Shown here piece after piece: positions 7,672 through 13,920 of a DNA stretch of 64,000 nt (its first letter is position 1; each line of letters begins with the position of its first letter). A program made the position numbers and the translations under genes. Origin of the DNA: Anaeromyxobacter sp. (GTDB taxonomy: Bacteria > Myxococcota > Myxococcia > Myxococcales > Anaeromyxobacteraceae); assembly GCA_035541675.1 (NCBI GenBank), contig DATKMW010000063.1, positions 1,771 through 65,770 of the forward strand, given 5' to 3'. The notes beneath the pieces were generated by a model. The model was given only the letters and a program-made list of their open reading frames with translations. It was not told the DNA's origin and did no database searches.

Positions 7672-8442
7672 ATGGACCTCCCCGCGGATCGCAAGGCGCT
7701 CGTCTTCTCGGCGGGCGGCGTCCGACTTGCGCTCCGGCTCTCCCACCTCCGGGAGATCGTGCCCGCACCCACGGAAGGGGGGGAGATCGTTGCCCGGGGC
7801 GAGGTCTACCCCACCGCCTTCGTGTCGACGGTCCTGGGGCTCCCCGGCGGTGCCACGCCGTTCGCTCTGCTCACCGAGGGTACGCCCCGCATGGCCCTGC
7901 GGGTGGAGGCGCTCCACGGGATCGTCGACCTGGCCGGGGCCGAGGTCTTCCAGCTCCCCGTCCCCACGCCGCTCCCCCAGCCGCCCCCCTTCACCGGCGT
8001 GGTGGTGGCCCGAGGAGAGGTGGCCCTGGAGCTGGCCGTGTCCAGCCTGGGCTTCGCACCGCTCGAGCCGGCGGTGGAGAACTCCGAGCCCCCGCCCGAC
8101 CTCGGGCCCTTCGCCGAGCGCGAGCTGCGCTTCTCCCGCGGCGGCGTCTGCTTCGCGGTGCCCCTCTCGCTCCTGGTGCAGGTGCTGGAGGAGCCAAGGC
8201 TCGCGCCGGTCCCGCTCACGCCCCCCTCCCACCGCGGCCTGCTGTACCACGCCCGCTCCCTGCACGCGGTGGTGGATCTCTCGCAGGTGTACGGGGTCGC
8301 CGCGCCAAGAACCGCGCACACCGTGCTCCTGCTCGACGCCGGCGGGACCGGCGTGGGGGTGGTGGCCGACCGGGTGTTCGGGGTCGGGGAGGGCGGCGAG
8401 GGCGTGGTGCGGCCGCCCTGGGACACGCTCTTCGGCGTGTAG
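7672..8442 (+). CDS. Protein with tandem CheW-like domains
   Basis: Two repeats of the F..GG..(L/F)A..L..(L/V)..I/V pattern; the second has PVPLTPP..RGLL...VVDL. Lies directly upstream of romR. Confidence 0.7.
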   Translation: MDLPADRKALVFSAGGVRLALRLSHLREIVPAPTEGGEIVARGEVYPTAFVSTVLGLPGGATPFALLTEGTPRMALRVEALHGIVDLAGAEVFQLPVPTPLPQPPPFTGVVVARGEVALELAVSSLGFAPLEPAVENSEPPPDLGPFAERELRFSRGGVCFAVPLSLLVQVLEEPRLAPVPLTPPSHRGLLYHARSLHAVVDLSQVYGVAAPRTAHTVLLLDAGGTGVGVVADRVFGVGEGGEGVVRPPWDTLFGV

Positions 8443-8558: not shown

Positions 8559-9935
8559 ATGCCCAAGAACCTGCTCCTCGCGGACGATTCGATCACCATC
8601 CAGAAGGTCGTGGGCATCACTTTCGCCAGCGAGGACTACCAGGTCGTCGCGGTGGACAACGGCGAGGACGCGGTGGCCAGGGCGCGCGAGCTCAAGCCCG
8701 ATGTGATCCTGGCCGACGTGGTCATGCCCAAGAAGAACGGGTACGAGCTGTGCGAGGCGGTGAAGGCCGACCCCGGCCTGGCCGGAATCCCGGTCCTGCT
8801 CCTGTCCGGCACCTTCGAGGCCTTCGACGAAGGGCGCGCCCAGGCAGCCGGCGCCGATGGCCACATCGCCAAGCCGTTCGAGAGCCAAGCCCTCATCAAC
8901 AAGGTGAAGGAGCTGGTCGAGGGTAAGGGCGCCGCTGCGCCGGCTCGCTCCGCGGCCGCCCCCGCCTCGCCCGCGGCGCGGCCCCCCTCGCCCGTGGCCC
9001 GGCCTGCCACGGCCCCGGCTCCCCGGCCCGCGCCGGCCCCTGCCGCCGGCCGTCCGATCGGGCCCGCCGTGCCTCCCGGGGCGCGTCCCCCCGGCCCGGG
9101 CCTCCCCCCCGGCGCACGTCCGCCGGGCCCCGGGATGTCCCCCGGAGCGCGGCCGGTCGGCGCGCCCAGGCCGGGCCCGTTCCCGCCTGGTGCGGCGGCG
9201 CGACCTCCCGCGGCGGGCATGCCCCCCGGCGCTCGTCCGCCCGCACCGGGGGTGCCTCCGGGCGCCGGCCCGCGCCCCGGGGCGCCGATGCCTCCTTCGG
9301 GCGCTCCGCGCCCGCTCGCGGTGGGCATGCCCCCCGGGCCGCGCCCCGGCCCCGGCCCGCTCCAGCCCGGCGCGCGCCCGCTCCCCGGTGCCGCCTCGCC
9401 GCGCCCGGCCGCCCCGCCGGCCCGGCCGGCCGCGCCGCAGCCGGCCGTGCGCCCGGCCGCCCGCAAGGACCCCTTCGGCCTCGGGGACGCGATCTCGGCG
9501 CCGCCCCCGGCCGGCGCACGGCCCGTGCCGGCCCCGCCCCCGCCGGCGCCCGCCGCGCCGAGCCTGGAGCTGCCCGAGGTCCCGAGCCTCGAGGTGAGCC
9601 TGGAGGAGGAGGTCCCGGCCACGCCGTCCGCGGCCAAGCCGGCCGCCGCCCCGGCGCCTGCCCCGGCCGCCCCTCCGCAGGCAGCTCTCGAGCTCCCCGA
9701 TGCCGGCGAGCTGCCCGAGCTGGCGCCGATGCACGAGTTCGTGCCGCCGGCCGAGTCGACCGGCCACAAGCCCGAGCCGAGGGCGGGCGACGGCGGCGAC
9801 GCCCTGCTGCGCGAGGCGCTGTCCAAGGCCTCCCGCGAGGTCATCGAGCGGGTGGTATGGGAGGTCGTGCCCCAGCTCGCCGAGACCATCATCCGCGAGA
9901 ACCTCGATCGCCTCGTACGGGAGCGGCAGAAGTAG
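8559..9935 (+). CDS. romR: RomR-like polarity response regulator
   Basis: N-terminal receiver (LLADDS, ILADVVMP, IAKPF); long Pro-rich linker; C-terminal LREALSKASREVIERVVWEVVPQLAETIIRENLDRL matches the RomR C-domain as I recall it; adjacent to valS. Confidence 0.85.
   Translation: MPKNLLLADDSITIQKVVGITFASEDYQVVAVDNGEDAVARARELKPDVILADVVMPKKNGYELCEAVKADPGLAGIPVLLLSGTFEAFDEGRAQAAGADGHIAKPFESQALINKVKELVEGKGAAAPARSAAAPASPAARPPSPVARPATAPAPRPAPAPAAGRPIGPAVPPGARPPGPGLPPGARPPGPGMSPGARPVGAPRPGPFPPGAAARPPAAGMPPGARPPAPGVPPGAGPRPGAPMPPSGAPRPLAVGMPPGPRPGPGPLQPGARPLPGAASPRPAAPPARPAAPQPAVRPAARKDPFGLGDAISAPPPAGARPVPAPPPPAPAAPSLELPEVPSLEVSLEEEVPATPSAAKPAAAPAPAPAAPPQAALELPDAGELPELAPMHEFVPPAESTGHKPEPRAGDGGDALLREALSKASREVIERVVWEVVPQLAETIIRENLDRLVRERQK
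9070..9400 (+). repeat. Degenerate PPGARPP(G/A)PG coding repeats in the RomR linker
   Basis: VPPGARPPGPGLPPGARPPGPGMSPGARP...MPPGARPPAPGVPPG. Confidence 0.7.
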
Positions 9936-10017: not shown

Positions 10018-10052
10018 GACCTACTCGGAACCCCACGTTGGAGAGACGAACA

Positions 10053-13000
10053 GTGAACGACGAAAACCGCACCGCGCTCGCCAAGGGCTACGCGCATCGA
10101 GAGGTGGAGGCGCGCTGGTATGCGTTCTGGAGGGCGCGCGGCTACTTCCACGGCGACGAGCGCGACCAGACCCGGCCGCCGTTCTCCATCGTGCTGCCCC
10201 CGCCCAACGTGACCGGCTCGCTGCACCTCGGCCACGCCCTCACCGCCACCCTCCAGGACGTCCTGATCCGCTGGAAGCGGATGAGCGGCTTCAACACGCT
10301 CTGGCTCCCCGGCACCGACCACGCCGGCATCGCCACCCAGATGATCGTGGAGAAGGAGCTGCAGCGGACCGAGCACAAGAGCCGGCACGACCTGGGCCGC
10401 GAGGAGTTCCTGCGCCGGGTGTGGCAGTGGAAGGAACGCTACGGATCGCGCATCGGCGAGCAGCACCAGGCGCTGGGAGCCTCGCTCGACTGGGAGCGCG
10501 AGCGCTTCACCATGGACGAGGGGCTTTCCCGGGCGGTGCGCGAGGTCTTCGTCCGGCTCCACGAGGAGGGGCTCATCTACCGGGAGATGAAGCTCATCAA
10601 CTGGTGCCCCCGCTGCCAAACCGCCCTCTCCGACCTGGAGGTCAGCTACGAGGAGGCGCACAAGGGTGAGCTGTGGAGCTTCGCCTATCCGCTGGCCGAC
10701 GGCTCCGGGGAGATCGTGGTGGCCACCACCCGGCCGGAGACGATGCTGGGCGACACCGCGGTGGCAGTGCACCCCGAGGACGAGCGCTACCGGGCGCTCC
10801 TCGGGAGGAGCGTCCGGCACCCGCTGGTCGACCGGACCCTCCCCATCATCGGCGATGCCATCCTGGTCGACCCGGCCTTCGGCACCGGCGCCGTCAAGGT
10901 CACGCCGGCCCACGACTTCAACGACTTCGAGGTGGGCAAGCGCCACGGGCTGGGGATGATCACGGTCGTCGGCCCGGACGGGAGCATGACCGCCGAGGCC
11001 GGACCGGTGGCCGGCCTGGACCGGTTCGCCGCGCGCAAGGAGGTGAAGCGCCTCCTGTCCGAGCGGGGGCTGGACCGCGGGTCGCAGCCGCACACCCTGC
11101 CCCTGGGCCGGTGCCAGCGCTGCGAGACGGTGCTCGAGCCGCTCCTCTCCAACCAGTGGTTCGTGCGCATCGAGCCGCTGGCCAGGCCGGCCATCCAGGC
11201 GGTGGAGGAGGGGAAGACCCGGTTCATCCCGGAGCAGTGGACCAACACCTACATGTCCTGGATGCGGAACATCCACGACTGGTGCATCAGCCGCCAGCTC
11301 TGGTGGGGCCACCAGATCCCGGCCTGGTACTGCGCCGACGGCCACGTGACGGTGGCGCGCCAGGCCCCGGAGCAGTGCGGCACCTGCGGGAAGGGCGGCC
11401 TGCGCCAGGACGAGGACGTGCTCGACACCTGGTTCTCCTCGGGCCTGTGGCCCTTCTCGACCATGGGCTGGCCCGACGAGACCGCCACGCTGCGCACCTT
11501 CTACCCGACCGCGGTCATGGAGACCGGGCACGACATCATCTTCTTCTGGGTGGCCCGGATGATGATGATGGGCATCCACTTCATGGGCGAGGTGCCCTTC
11601 CGGACGGTGTACCTGCACCCCATGGTCCGGGACGAGAAGGGCCAGAAGATGTCCAAGACCAAGGGGAACGTCATCGATCCCCTGGTCATCAGCGAGCAGT
11701 ATGGCGCCGACGCCCTGCGCTTCACCCTGGCCGCCCTGACCGCCCAGGGGCGGGACATCAAGCTGGCCAAGGAGCGGATCGAGGGGTACCGGGCTTTCGC
11801 CAACAAGCTCTGGAACGCGAGCCGGTTCGCCCTCATGAACCTGGCCGGGTACGAGGAGGGAGGGGGAGAGCTGGCGGGCCTCGATCTCTCCCCGGCCGAT
11901 CGCTGGATCCTGGCCCGCCTGCAGCGGGCCACCAACGAGGTGGTGCAGGCGCTGGAGGCGTTCCGGTTCAACGACGCGGCCAGCACGCTCTACCAGTTCG
12001 TCTGGCACGAGCTCTGCGATTGGTACATCGAGCTGGCCAAGGAGGCGCTCTCCGGGGACCACGCCGGGCGGCGCCGGGCCGCCCAGGCGGTGCTGGTCCG
12101 CTGCCTGTCGACCTCGTACCGGCTCCTTCACCCGTTCATGCCCTTCATCACCGAGGAGCTCTGGCACGTGCTCCGCGACGAGGTGAAGGCCTGGGCCTGG
12201 CCGGACTCCGCGCTGGCCGCCTCGTACCCCCAGAAGGGTACCGTGGACGAGGACGCGGAGCGGACCTTCGGGCCGGTCATCGGCGTCGTCGACGCGATCC
12301 GCAATGTCCGCGGGGAGATGAACGTCCCGCCCAAGGCCGAGCCCAGGGTCGTCATCGCCGTCCCCGAGCGGCAGGCACTCTCGACAGTCCGGGGGGAGGC
12401 GGCGCGCATCGCCCTGCTCGCCCGGGCCAGGGTGGAGGTGGTCGAAGGCCCCACCGCCCCGGCCGCCCCCCAGACCGCGGTCGCGGTCGGCCCCGGCTTC
12501 GAGCTCCGGCTGTACCTGGCGGGAGTCCTGGACCTCGCGGCCGAGATCGCACGGGTGGAGAAGGAGTTGACCCGGCTCGACCAGGACCTCTCCGGGATCG
12601 AGGGCAAGCTGGCGAACCCGTCCTTCGTCCAGAAGGCGCCCGCCGAGGTGGTGGAGAAGGACCGGGCCCGCGCCGGCGAGCTGCGCGAAAAAAGAGGAAA
12701 GCTCGAGGCCCATCGTGCGATGCTCTCCGGCACCGAGGCGAACACCGCCAGGAGGGACACCATGGAGAACCAGATTCCGCCCATGCCCGTCGCGGAGATG
12801 TCCGCCGCCGAGCCGGCCAAGGTGGAGCCGGCCCCGGCCCCGGTCGCTCCCGTCGTCGAGCCCGCGCCGGCACCTGCTCAACCCGAAGTGAACGCTGCGC
12901 CCCCGGCCCCCAAGAAGAAGGCGGCCAAGAAGGCCAAGAAGCCGGCCCGGAAGGCCAAGAAGGCCACGCGGAAGGCCGCGCCCCGCAAGGCGGCGAAGAA

Positions 13001-13073
13001 GGCGAAGAAGCCGGTCCGCAAGCCGGTCCGGAAGGCCAAGAAGGCCCGCAAGGCCGCCCGGCGGCGGAGGTAG
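10053..13073 (+). CDS. valS: Valine--tRNA ligase with a C-terminal Pro/Ala linker and Lys/Arg-rich tail
   Basis: PPPNVTGSLHLGH (HIGH), PGTDHAGIATQ, WCISRQLWWGH, DTWFSS, KMSKT, C-terminal coiled coil. GTG 10053 has SD ggaga (TTG 10038 is an alternative). Confidence 0.97.
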   Translation: MNDENRTALAKGYAHREVEARWYAFWRARGYFHGDERDQTRPPFSIVLPPPNVTGSLHLGHALTATLQDVLIRWKRMSGFNTLWLPGTDHAGIATQMIVEKELQRTEHKSRHDLGREEFLRRVWQWKERYGSRIGEQHQALGASLDWERERFTMDEGLSRAVREVFVRLHEEGLIYREMKLINWCPRCQTALSDLEVSYEEAHKGELWSFAYPLADGSGEIVVATTRPETMLGDTAVAVHPEDERYRALLGRSVRHPLVDRTLPIIGDAILVDPAFGTGAVKVTPAHDFNDFEVGKRHGLGMITVVGPDGSMTAEAGPVAGLDRFAARKEVKRLLSERGLDRGSQPHTLPLGRCQRCETVLEPLLSNQWFVRIEPLARPAIQAVEEGKTRFIPEQWTNTYMSWMRNIHDWCISRQLWWGHQIPAWYCADGHVTVARQAPEQCGTCGKGGLRQDEDVLDTWFSSGLWPFSTMGWPDETATLRTFYPTAVMETGHDIIFFWVARMMMMGIHFMGEVPFRTVYLHPMVRDEKGQKMSKTKGNVIDPLVISEQYGADALRFTLAALTAQGRDIKLAKERIEGYRAFANKLWNASRFALMNLAGYEEGGGELAGLDLSPADRWILARLQRATNEVVQALEAFRFNDAASTLYQFVWHELCDWYIELAKEALSGDHAGRRRAAQAVLVRCLSTSYRLLHPFMPFITEELWHVLRDEVKAWAWPDSALAASYPQKGTVDEDAERTFGPVIGVVDAIRNVRGEMNVPPKAEPRVVIAVPERQALSTVRGEAARIALLARARVEVVEGPTAPAAPQTAVAVGPGFELRLYLAGVLDLAAEIARVEKELTRLDQDLSGIEGKLANPSFVQKAPAEVVEKDRARAGELREKRGKLEAHRAMLSGTEANTARRDTMENQIPPMPVAEMSAAEPAKVEPAPAPVAPVVEPAPAPAQPEVNAAPPAPKKKAAKKAKKPARKAKKATRKAAPRKAAKKAKKPVRKPVRKAKKARKAARRRR
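12762..13073 (+). CDS. Possible separately initiated 103-aa histone-H1-like protein nested in frame in valS
   Basis: AGGAGG (12750-12755) lies 6 nt before in-frame ATG 12762. The last 53 aa contain 21 K, 10 R and no acidic residue. Confidence 0.4.
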   Translation: MENQIPPMPVAEMSAAEPAKVEPAPAPVAPVVEPAPAPAQPEVNAAPPAPKKKAAKKAKKPARKAKKATRKAAPRKAAKKAKKPVRKPVRKAKKARKAARRRR

Positions 13074-13083
13074 CCCGGGGCCG

Positions 13084-13920
13084 ATGCGGCAGCTGTCCGC
13101 CCAGGTCGAGAGGCTCGTCGAGCTGGCCCTCGAGGAGGACCTCTCGCTGGGGGACGCCACCAGCGAGGCGACCCTCGAGCCGGCGGCGTCGGGGGAGGGC
13201 GTGTTCCTGGCCAAGGAGGACCTGGTGATCGCCGGCACGGCGGTGGCGGCCCGGGTCTTCGAGAGGCTGGGCGCGTCCTGCCGGTTCGAGCGCCGCGATG
13301 GGGAAGGCGTCCGGGCTGGCGAGGTGGTGGGCACGGCCCGGGGGCCGGTCCAGGCCCTCCTCGCTGCCGAGCGCACGGCGCTCAACTTCCTCCAGCGCCT
13401 CTCCGGGGTGGCCACCGCCACCCGCCGCTGCGTGGAGGCCCTGGCGAGGGGCGGCGCGACGACGCGGTTGCTCGACACCCGCAAGACCACTCCCGGCTTC
13501 CGCCTGCTGGAGAAGGCGGCCGTGCGCGCCGGCGGGGGGACCAACCACCGGCTCTCGCTGGGCGACGGCATCCTCATCAAGGACAACCACGTGGCGGCCA
13601 GCGGCGGAGTGGCCGAGGCGGTGCGGCGGGCGCGGGCCAGGGCCGGCGCGCTGCTCCGGATCGAGGTGGAGGTGGTGGACCTGGCCGGCCTCGATGCGGC
13701 CATCGCCGCCGGCGCCGATCTGGTCCTGCTCGACAACATGGACGATGCCGGCATCGCCGAGGCCGTGGCCCGGGCCTCCGGCCGGGTGCGCCTCGAGGCC
13801 AGCGGGAACATGACCCTGGAGCGGCTGCCGCGGGTGGCCGCCACCGGCGTCGACTTCGTGTCCATGGGGGCCATCACCCACAGTGCCAGGGCGGTGGACC
13901 TGTCGTTCGAGCTGCGGTGA
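13084..13920 (+). CDS. nadC: Nicotinate-nucleotide diphosphorylase (carboxylating)
   Basis: ERTALNFLQRLSGVAT, DTRKTTPG, HRLSLGDGILIKDNH, IEVEV, LLDNM, EASGN. Confidence 0.95.
   Translation: MRQLSAQVERLVELALEEDLSLGDATSEATLEPAASGEGVFLAKEDLVIAGTAVAARVFERLGASCRFERRDGEGVRAGEVVGTARGPVQALLAAERTALNFLQRLSGVATATRRCVEALARGGATTRLLDTRKTTPGFRLLEKAAVRAGGGTNHRLSLGDGILIKDNHVAASGGVAEAVRRARARAGALLRIEVEVVDLAGLDAAIAAGADLVLLDNMDDAGIAEAVARASGRVRLEASGNMTLERLPRVAATGVDFVSMGAITHSARAVDLSFELR

Follow-up and report, generated by a model that had tools for sequence, protein, structure and literature searches.

The valS gene of the myxobacterium Anaeromyxobacter sp. was examined in a 64,000-nucleotide stretch of DNA (contig DATKMW010000063.1 of assembly GCA_035541675.1, positions 1,771 to 65,770 of the forward strand), which is referred to below as the window. 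The gene encodes a long form of valine--tRNA ligase (ValRS) with a basic C-terminal extension; it is preceded by a cheW-like gene and a response regulator gene and followed by nadC, birA and a gene for type III pantothenate kinase. Just behind the coiled-coil tRNA-binding arm of ValRS the window reads ...gcc AGG AGG gac acc ATG gag aac cag..., so that an in-frame ATG, which is Met909 of ValRS ((12762-10038)/3 = 908), is preceded at functional spacing by a Shine-Dalgarno (SD) sequence, as expected for a gene with two products. The results presented below suggest that this is probably a selected internal initiation site, which would make a free polycationic protein and feed ribosomes to nadC. 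The features of the locus and the codons found at the corresponding site in related genomes are listed in Table 1.

Table 1. Features of the valS-nadC locus in the window and codons at the internal SD among relatives.
Feature	Coordinates	Strand	Remarks
valS open reading frame (ORF), long-form valine--tRNA ligase with C-terminal basic extension	10038..13073	+	1011 codons from TTG 10038; ORF list, Pfam, NCBIfam
ValRS C-terminal coiled-coil tRNA-binding arm	12531..12725	+	Residues 832-896, Pfam PF10458; last folded element before the internal start
Rare-codon block GAA AAA AGA GGA AAG ... CAT CGT	12687..12716	+	In the coiled coil, 46-75 nt upstream of the internal ATG
Internal SD AGGAGGG	12750..12756	+	Rare Arg codons AGG AGG plus G of GAC; duplex -10.5 kcal/mol
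Internal start codon ATG	12762..12764	+	In frame with valS; 6 nt after AGGAGG (12750-12755)
Nested in-frame ORF, putative free protein	12762..13073	+	103 amino acids, 10.98 kDa, isoelectric point (pI) 11.7, predicted disordered
Acidic Pro/Ala-rich linker, N-terminal half of the tail	12762..12911	+	50 amino acids; 6 Asp+Glu, 1 Lys+Arg, 15 Pro, 13 Ala
Lys/Arg/Ala/Pro-rich polycationic C-terminal half of the tail	12912..13070	+	53 amino acids; 31 Lys+Arg, 0 acidic; H1-like composition
GGAGG, SD of nadC	13066..13070	+	Last tail codons CGG AGG before TAG; SD -10.7 kcal/mol
nadC, carboxylating nicotinate-nucleotide diphosphorylase	13084..13920	+	NCBIfam TIGR00078, 309 bits
GGAGG-encoding residues RRD			Codons AGG AGG GAC
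GGAGG-encoding residues EEK			Codons GAG GAG AAG
GGAGG-encoding residues PEG			Codons CCG GAG GGA
GGAGG-encoding residues AED			Codons GCG GAG GAT
GGAGG-encoding residues SEE			Codons TCG GAG GAA
GGAGG-encoding residues VEE			Codons GTG GAG GAA
Junction residues GGS			Codons GGA GGG AGT
Junction residues EEAE			Codons GAG GAG GCC GAG

The initial annotation of this DNA had described a perfect AGGAGG 6 nt before an in-frame ATG at 12762, directly after the ValRS coiled coil, and a 103-amino acid product of the form MENQIPP...KKAAKKAKK...RRRR. These points were confirmed, as AGGAGG occupies 12750-12755, the PF10458 match ends at residue 896 with Met909 following, and 103 codons lead from the ATG to the TAG at 13071-13073. 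The remark that Arg is usually written CGC or CGG also agrees with the codon usage of the 36 ORFs in the window with a high GC content at third codon positions (GC3), in which CGG and CGC together account for 1105 of 1267 Arg codons and AGG for 80 (6.3%), and in which AGG-AGG was used for 2 of 137 Arg-Arg pairs.

The valS product contains the class-I catalytic domain (tRNA-synt_1, residues 27-576), the anticodon-binding domain (Anticodon_1, residues 621-772) and the coiled-coil tRNA arm (Val_tRNA-synt_C, PF10458, residues 832-896) and is thus a complete valine--tRNA ligase. It is also a member of the NCBIfam family NF011492 (PRK14900), with a score of 1803.3 bits compared to the curated cut-off of 1783. 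Given that residues 7-1007 were aligned to positions 2-1016 of the 1044 positions in the profile, with the tail covered, the fused architecture is already catalogued as one protein. The window ValRS therefore fits this family from end to end, tail included; the difference is that the family annotation describes a single product and is silent on an internal start. With regard to the 5' end of the gene, the NF011492 alignment begins at residue 7, and the listed TTG 10038 is probably not the true start of valS, which may instead be GTG 10053 (GGAGAG 7 nt upstream). In an AlphaFold model, based on an alignment of 24 relatives, the predicted local distance difference test score (pLDDT) was 94-98 over the coiled coil and about 45-55 from approximately residue 905 onward, which places Met909 at the boundary between fold and disorder.

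The linker with which the nested ORF begins opens with MENQ, and the motif ME(N/T)(Q/N)N is conserved in Anaeromyxobacteraceae. The polycationic half that follows is the only segment of its kind in the 64-kb window. The proposed product had been called histone-like, and this is justified with respect to composition, as the segment is rich in Lys, Ala and Pro, is predicted to be disordered (pLDDT below 50) and is highly basic (31 Lys+Arg among 53 residues, pI 11.7). It is not justified with respect to family membership, given that the tail matched no Pfam family (E <= 0.01) and no NCBIfam family and that the HC2 profile (PF07382) gave 28 bits for the Pyxidicoccus tail compared to a cut-off of 40. 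One metagenomic relative (P0004) has a precomputed PF07382 match.

The site was compared among 80 Myxococcota genome loci (cited below by L numbers), which were fetched with an alignment of 24 ValRS C-terminal fragments and contained 52 unique tail-bearing contexts on which the counts of start signals are based. Nearly all loci share the layout coiled coil, short linker, Met, variable middle and Lys/Arg-rich end. In 43 of the 52 contexts an in-frame ATG or GTG was preceded, at a distance of 5-8 nt, by a strong SD (duplex with the 16S 3' end at -8 kcal/mol or stronger), and these 43 cover 30 distinct four-residue contexts with a shared GGAGG core. The core is written AGGAGGGAC where the residues are RRD(T/S/P), GAGGAGAAG where they are EEK, CCGGAGGGA where they are PEG and GCGGAGGAT where they are AED. 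The ATG is kept in nearly all tail-bearing relatives, and in L002 and L033 it is replaced by GTG (Val) with the SD intact. In 26 unique Anaeromyxobacter sequences of the RR type the junction Arg-Arg pair was AGGAGG in every case (26/26), compared to a share of 4.6% for AGG among the Arg codons of the same genes, and the tail-ending Arg residues were CGG or CGC in 65/81 cases. In the same 26 sequences, the codons for further invariant Arg residues in the coiled coil vary among CGG, CGC, CGT and AGG, indicating that there has been time enough for synonymous turnover.

Conserved Met codons elsewhere in the gene do not carry such a signal. In a 43-sequence ValRS alignment, 36 columns had ATG or GTG in at least 60% of the sequences, and the junction was the sole SD-bearing conserved Met column among them (mean SD -9.96 kcal/mol, 93% at -8 or stronger), the means of the other 35 columns ranging from -7.4 to +0.4 kcal/mol with at most 30% at -8 or stronger. 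The SD and the start codon are thus conserved beyond what the protein requires. The signal exists, and its conservation at the nucleotide level is independent of the encoded residues. The invariant AGGAGG in the RR-type sequences, the persistence of GGAGG under changing residues and the exchange of ATG for GTG argue for ongoing selection. In a neighbour-joining tree of the ValRS body, which was midpoint-rooted and is approximate, the deep clades are listed as two groups of uncultured 'Myxococcales', Myxococcaceae and Anaeromyxobacteraceae; the extension with its Met was found in all three deep clades, as was the basic tail. The initial annotation had pointed to Myxococcota orthologs as a check, and the SD and ATG proved to be present in close and distant ones.

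An alternative explanation is that valS makes a single protein and that GGAGG and Met are kept as an elongation pause (SD-like or rare codons) or as a peptide motif, ARRDxMENQN. This would agree with the assignment of the tail-bearing long form to one ValRS family in NF011492, with a tail that is always fused and in frame, with the conserved opening of the linker as a protein motif, with rare codons (GAA AAA AGA, CAT CGT, AGG AGG) that could slow ribosomes in the Anaeromyxobacter clade, and with three lineages in which the tail occurs without Met or SD. However, a start codon would not be required for pausing, and still ATG or GTG stands at optimal spacing, 5-8 nt behind the SD, in the 43 contexts described above. 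A peptide motif cannot account for a nucleotide core that is shared by clades with different peptides (RRD, EEK, PEG, AED and others). Moreover, the EEK and PEG clades build the SD from common codons, and tail-less relatives use the same sequence as the SD of nadC. We consider a single product unlikely.

The mRNA around the site was examined for structure in 50-nt windows centred on the ATG, which were compared with windows from the gene body for 49 loci. The folding energies were -9.3 and -17.0 kcal/mol, respectively (mean z +1.7), showing that the mRNA is locally unstructured across these loci. GC content around the site falls from 0.69 to 0.62, and GC3 dips at several upstream codons compared to 0.936 in the gene body. 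No conserved structure was found across the region by RNAalifold (-1.75 kcal/mol, no covariation), and a scan around the site gave no Rfam match. Sequestration of the SD by an upstream CUCUCC was rejected as the pairing is not kept among relatives. No sigma-70-like site for an internal promoter was found in 11800-13300, in a scan that has little power in 70% GC DNA.

A block of rare codons within the coiled coil precedes the internal start in the window and at the homologous positions of L001-L032. In the 26 RR-type sequences it contained GAA in 26/26, AAA in 24/26, AGA in 21/21 for Arg, CAT in 25/26 and CGT in 26/26, giving the fixed pattern CGC GAA AAA AGA GGN AAG ... CAT CGT. In the valS body the corresponding shares of the codon families are 4.9% (GAA), 0.4% (AAA), 1.0% (AGA), 5.9% (CAT) and 3.8% (CGT), and lineages without the internal start write the same block residues with common codons. 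The block showed no conserved RNA structure and no Rfam match; it could serve ribosomes as an A-rich standby site without structure, be a site of processing or form a cluster that causes pausing. A palindrome, GCATCG-TG-CGATGC, was considered as the reason for CAT CGT and was not adopted, being degenerate in about half of the sequences. Frameshifting or slippage at the A6 run (12688-12693) was likewise rejected on inspection, as there is no in-frame X_XXY_YYZ heptamer and both other frames are open for hundreds of codons.

The initial annotation had left room for a stop codon missed by the assembly, in which case the true end of valS would lie behind the coiled coil and an independent small gene would follow. 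The assembly, which itself derives from a wetland metagenome, contains no such stop, and a Logan unitig of 830 nt, taken from an independent run on a wetland metagenome, spans 12435-13264 with 0 differences and 0 gaps; the variants in another run were just two synonymous C>T changes (12662 and 12686). The same unbroken valS-tail ORF was found in about 60 related genomes, including the complete genomes of the cultured strains A. oryzae (L005) and C. coralloides (L077). What speaks for an artefact is that the frame breaks here in several nanopore-derived metagenome-assembled genomes (MAGs; L011, L034 and L048). The start signal is conserved in these three as well, the shifted frame having an SD and ATG. 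With the identical unitig and the continuous frame in relatives, a two-gene artefact is excluded, its probability being close to nil. In five long-read MAGs (L011, L017, L034, L044 and L048) the 3' end of valS is frame-broken and the tail goes on in another frame, and these breaks are most likely homopolymer sequencing errors and not real split genes. A separate downstream gene for the tail, for which a check of orthologs had been suggested, was not found between valS and nadC in any sampled genome; nadC directly follows valS.

Beyond the start signal the tails differ in length and content. The extension is much longer in Myxococcaceae (L060, L069, L071, L073, L075-L080), reaching 240-360 amino acids in Myxococcus, Corallococcus and Pyxidicoccus, and contains the motif LxKLREGTKEGLSxxDHHDLGVAYMxMGLVDDAMREF, which resembles a helix pair of the tetratricopeptide repeat (TPR) type and precedes the AKKA repeats. 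This motif lies approximately 80-130 residues past the junction Met and gave no Pfam match above threshold. Most Anaeromyxobacteraceae (e.g. L005, L019 and L038) have a mid-tail segment of approximately 30 residues rich in Ala, Val and Glu, such as MEQVVSTAVEVGKAAVSAVMAGAEAALEKV, which judged by its composition is likely to be helical; the window and its closest relatives have the Pro/Ala linker in its place. Metagenome contigs covering 12910-13010 showed joints at which 52-54 nt are skipped, together with numerous loose ends into other Lys-rich genes. Either the repeat length varies between strains or contigs of other genes with AKKA repeats were mapped here, and several of those genes begin with an SD and ATG of their own.

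The initial annotation had offered, as an alternative to dual translation, a fusion that kept the old start signal. According to this explanation an ancestral gene for a basic protein lost the intervening stop, and the SD and ATG linger unused. The tail indeed behaves as a discrete cassette beginning at the Met, what is missing in tail-less relatives is precisely the stretch between this start and that of nadC, and stand-alone Lys-rich genes with SD and ATG are present in the same metagenome (the loose ends mentioned above). However, the unfused arrangement occurs in no sampled genome, the signal has outlived the divergence of three deep clades within a fast-evolving disordered linker, and AGGAGG is invariant in the RR-type sequences though one synonymous A-to-C change would remove it. 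Given that flanking synonymous sites and residues turned over and AGGAGG stayed, neutral decay would have erased the signal. An unused fossil is thus very improbable, and the exchange of ATG for GTG also speaks against it; an ancient fusion as the ultimate origin of the tail is possible.

The nadC start codon lies 10 nt past the valS stop. In 61 unique loci the distance from the tail stop to the nadC start had a median of 5 nt, was mostly 0-16 nt and was <=20 nt in 51, and nadC had a strong SD of its own in 13 (mean -4.9 kcal/mol), the internal valS SD of the same loci (about -10 kcal/mol) being far stronger. A short gap from stop to start combined with a weak SD is typical of a gene whose translation is coupled to that of the ORF in front of it, and nadC is probably coupled in this way to the ORF that ends at 13073. 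In every sampled locus valS and nadC are neighbours, whether the tail is present or not. Four loci (L047, L049, L050 and L051) lack the tail, valS ending ...AHRAMLAEG(S)* with nadC directly next. L049 and L050/L051 nest within Anaeromyxobacteraceae (L047 was not placed in the tree), which indicates secondary loss at least twice. In all four loci, which are MAGs related to Anaeromyxobacteraceae, the entire cassette seems to have been deleted secondarily. The homologous GCGGAGGG now stands 5-8 nt before the nadC start in these loci, where GCG GAG GGG corresponds by homology to the GCG GAG GGA found ahead of the internal ATG in L031, a neighbour with a tail. The GGAGGGG contained in the final codons of valS serves as the nadC SD (-10 to -14.4 kcal/mol), and the same sequence thus works as a genuine SD without the cassette.

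These observations could also mean that the internal start mainly loads ribosomes for nadC, the nested ORF being a coupling leader and the free peptide a functionless by-product. The short spacing, the few loci with a strong nadC SD, the strong SD right before nadC in all four tail-less lineages and the universal synteny are all in line with this. However, ribosomes that have translated full-length valS end at the same stop, so a second entry would be unneeded, and a leader of 100-360 codons would be costly. In addition, the basic composition is conserved across deep clades, and the modules conserved in some tails (the helical segment in Anaeromyxobacteraceae and the TPR-like motif in Myxococcaceae) indicate selection on the polypeptide. 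A role in nadC loading alone is accordingly improbable.

We thus regard it as likely that the site in valS is a selected initiation site that is used. The valS gene of this organism, and of Myxococcia generally, would then be a two-product gene, in which starts at the 5' end would yield full-length ValRS with the polycation beside the coiled coil that binds the tRNA elbow, and ribosomes entering at AGGAGGG/AUG 12762 would yield the free 103-residue, 11-kDa polycation of pI 11.7. Ribosomes ending at 13071-13073 could reinitiate at the nadC ATG at 13084, and given the distance of 10 nt between the end of the nested ORF and nadC and the usually weak SD of nadC, the internal start probably supplies ribosomes to nadC. 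Actual initiation at the internal start, and the ratio in which the two products would be made, we infer from the conserved signal. By analogy with proteins that have similar tails we also infer that the polycation would bind polyanions (tRNA, DNA or polyphosphate); when fused it could add tRNA affinity to ValRS, and when free it could be an H1-like binder of nucleic acid or polyphosphate in the manner of CarD, AlgP and PhaF. The dual translation proposed in the initial annotation is thus partly supported: the conserved start signal, the lack of a stop and the lack of a separate tail gene favour it over a retained fusion signal, and the short protein is a prediction from the sequence.

Several observations weigh against a used internal start. 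Within the window alone, the site ranks 5th of 187 internal in-frame ATGs for SD strength and an SD this strong is present at 5/187 of them, which is within chance, and the AGGAGG hexamer occurs approximately 120 times on the two strands, mostly in GAG-GAG and AAG-GAG codons. The window alone was therefore dropped as proof of an internal start. The local unfolding of its own mRNA is modest (z = 0.6), and ribosomes elongating from upstream may occlude the internal site. Among relatives, the sub-clade of L035, L041 and L042 has a basic tail without the junction Met or SD, the cultured Myxococcaceae (Myxococcus, Corallococcus and Pyxidicoccus) keep the Met with a weak CGGAGC (-5.8 kcal/mol), and L067 and L069 have weak sites at the junction, which indicates that the tail does not oblige internal initiation. 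As the sampled sequences are related by descent, fewer independent events lie behind them than the counts suggest. Protein searches gave no stand-alone homologue of the tail: a HMMER search with the window tail against 1.84 billion representatives gave 0 matches, probably due to the composition-bias or low-complexity filter, a word-indexed search with the tail of a relative returned one contig-edge valS fragment and no stand-alone homologue, and a further protein search returned short ValRS fragments alone and is uninformative on the length distribution. No RNA or ribosome-profiling run containing the window locus was found, the runs found for Anaeromyxobacter sp. PSR-1 being metatranscriptome contigs of low share, and no description of the function of the myxobacterial ValRS extension or of an internal start in valS was found in the literature. 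L035, L041 and L042 constitute a natural control lineage for the function of the internal start.

Upstream of valS, a CheW-like ORF (7672-8442) precedes the response regulator (8559-9935), in which a receiver domain is followed by approximately 300 residues of Pro/Gly/Ala-rich repeats (PPGARPPGPG...).

Products of internal starts include IF2-beta from infB, clpB-80, the short form of cheA and the beta product of lysC in B. subtilis. Cas11 arises from an internal in-frame start within cas8/cas10d (PMC11899642), and internal in-frame starts were mapped in many E. coli genes by retapamulin ribosome profiling (bioRxiv 10.1101/520783). The valS site resembles these in having a conserved ribosome-binding site within the ORF and an in-frame start at a domain boundary, and in a short product that would match the C-terminal end of the long product exactly. 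It differs in that the host gene encodes an aminoacyl-tRNA synthetase, the predicted product is a disordered polycation and not a folded subunit, and the nested ORF is also placed to couple the next gene; furthermore, the short product is a prediction from the DNA. An in-frame nested product is of a known kind; what is new here is the gene that hosts it, the type of product and its coupling to nadC.

Bacterial H1-like proteins include Hc1 and Hc2 of chlamydiae. The C-terminal domain of CarD from Anaeromyxobacter dehalogenans is H1-like and can functionally take the place of the HMGA-like domain with which CarD of M. xanthus binds DNA (PMC2919716), and similar tails are present in Pseudomonas AlgP and PhaF, on DNA and on polyphosphate or polyhydroxyalkanoate granules (PMC11894788). 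The valS tail resembles these domains in composition, AKKA/PAKK/ARKA repeats, extreme pI and predicted disorder, and CarD provides a precedent in the same genus for the use of such a domain in DNA binding. The differences are that the valS tail is without family membership and is attached to a translation enzyme instead of a transcription or granule protein.

Polycationic extensions of synthetases are also known, as human LysRS has a lysine-rich disordered N-terminal appended domain that interacts with tRNA (PMC6213541); these appendices are N-terminal and eukaryotic and were described as absent from prokaryotic counterparts (PMC6213541). They share with the ValRS tail a polycationic disordered extension beside an element that contacts tRNA. 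To our knowledge, no eukaryotic appendix of the LysRS type is made separately from an internal start. The same tRNA-binding module is present free-standing in Trbp111 and fused in the C-terminal domain of bacterial MetRS, and there is a similarity to valS in that one nucleic-acid-binding module would occur in cis on the synthetase and in trans. Trbp111, however, is a folded OB-fold with its own gene, whereas valS would give both forms from one ORF.

Few bacterial genes are annotated as well as those for aminoacyl-tRNA synthetases, and the myxobacterial ValRS extension is filed as part of a single protein. Use of the internal start would mean that an entire bacterial class makes an unannotated and probably abundant H1-like protein from inside an essential housekeeping gene, an in-frame nested product of a bacterial synthetase gene for which no report was found. 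It would also be a rare case in which a sharp prediction, testable by mutation, was reached through comparative genomics alone. A further-reaching version, in which an abundant free H1-like polycation acts on the nucleoid, tRNA or polyphosphate, its synthesis is wired to the ValRS mRNA and nadC, and the A-rich block sets the ratio of products as a regulated standby or processing site, is rather doubtful; if true, a single ORF would form a physical link between the capacity for translation, the state of chromatin or condensates and the synthesis of cofactors. The finding bears on the bacterial gain of eukaryote-like lysine-rich appendices of aminoacyl-tRNA synthetases, on hidden N-terminal proteoforms and on the coupling of supply to downstream genes such as nadC. 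Should the internal start prove to be unused, the strict conservation of GGAGG and AUG within coding sequence would itself need explaining.

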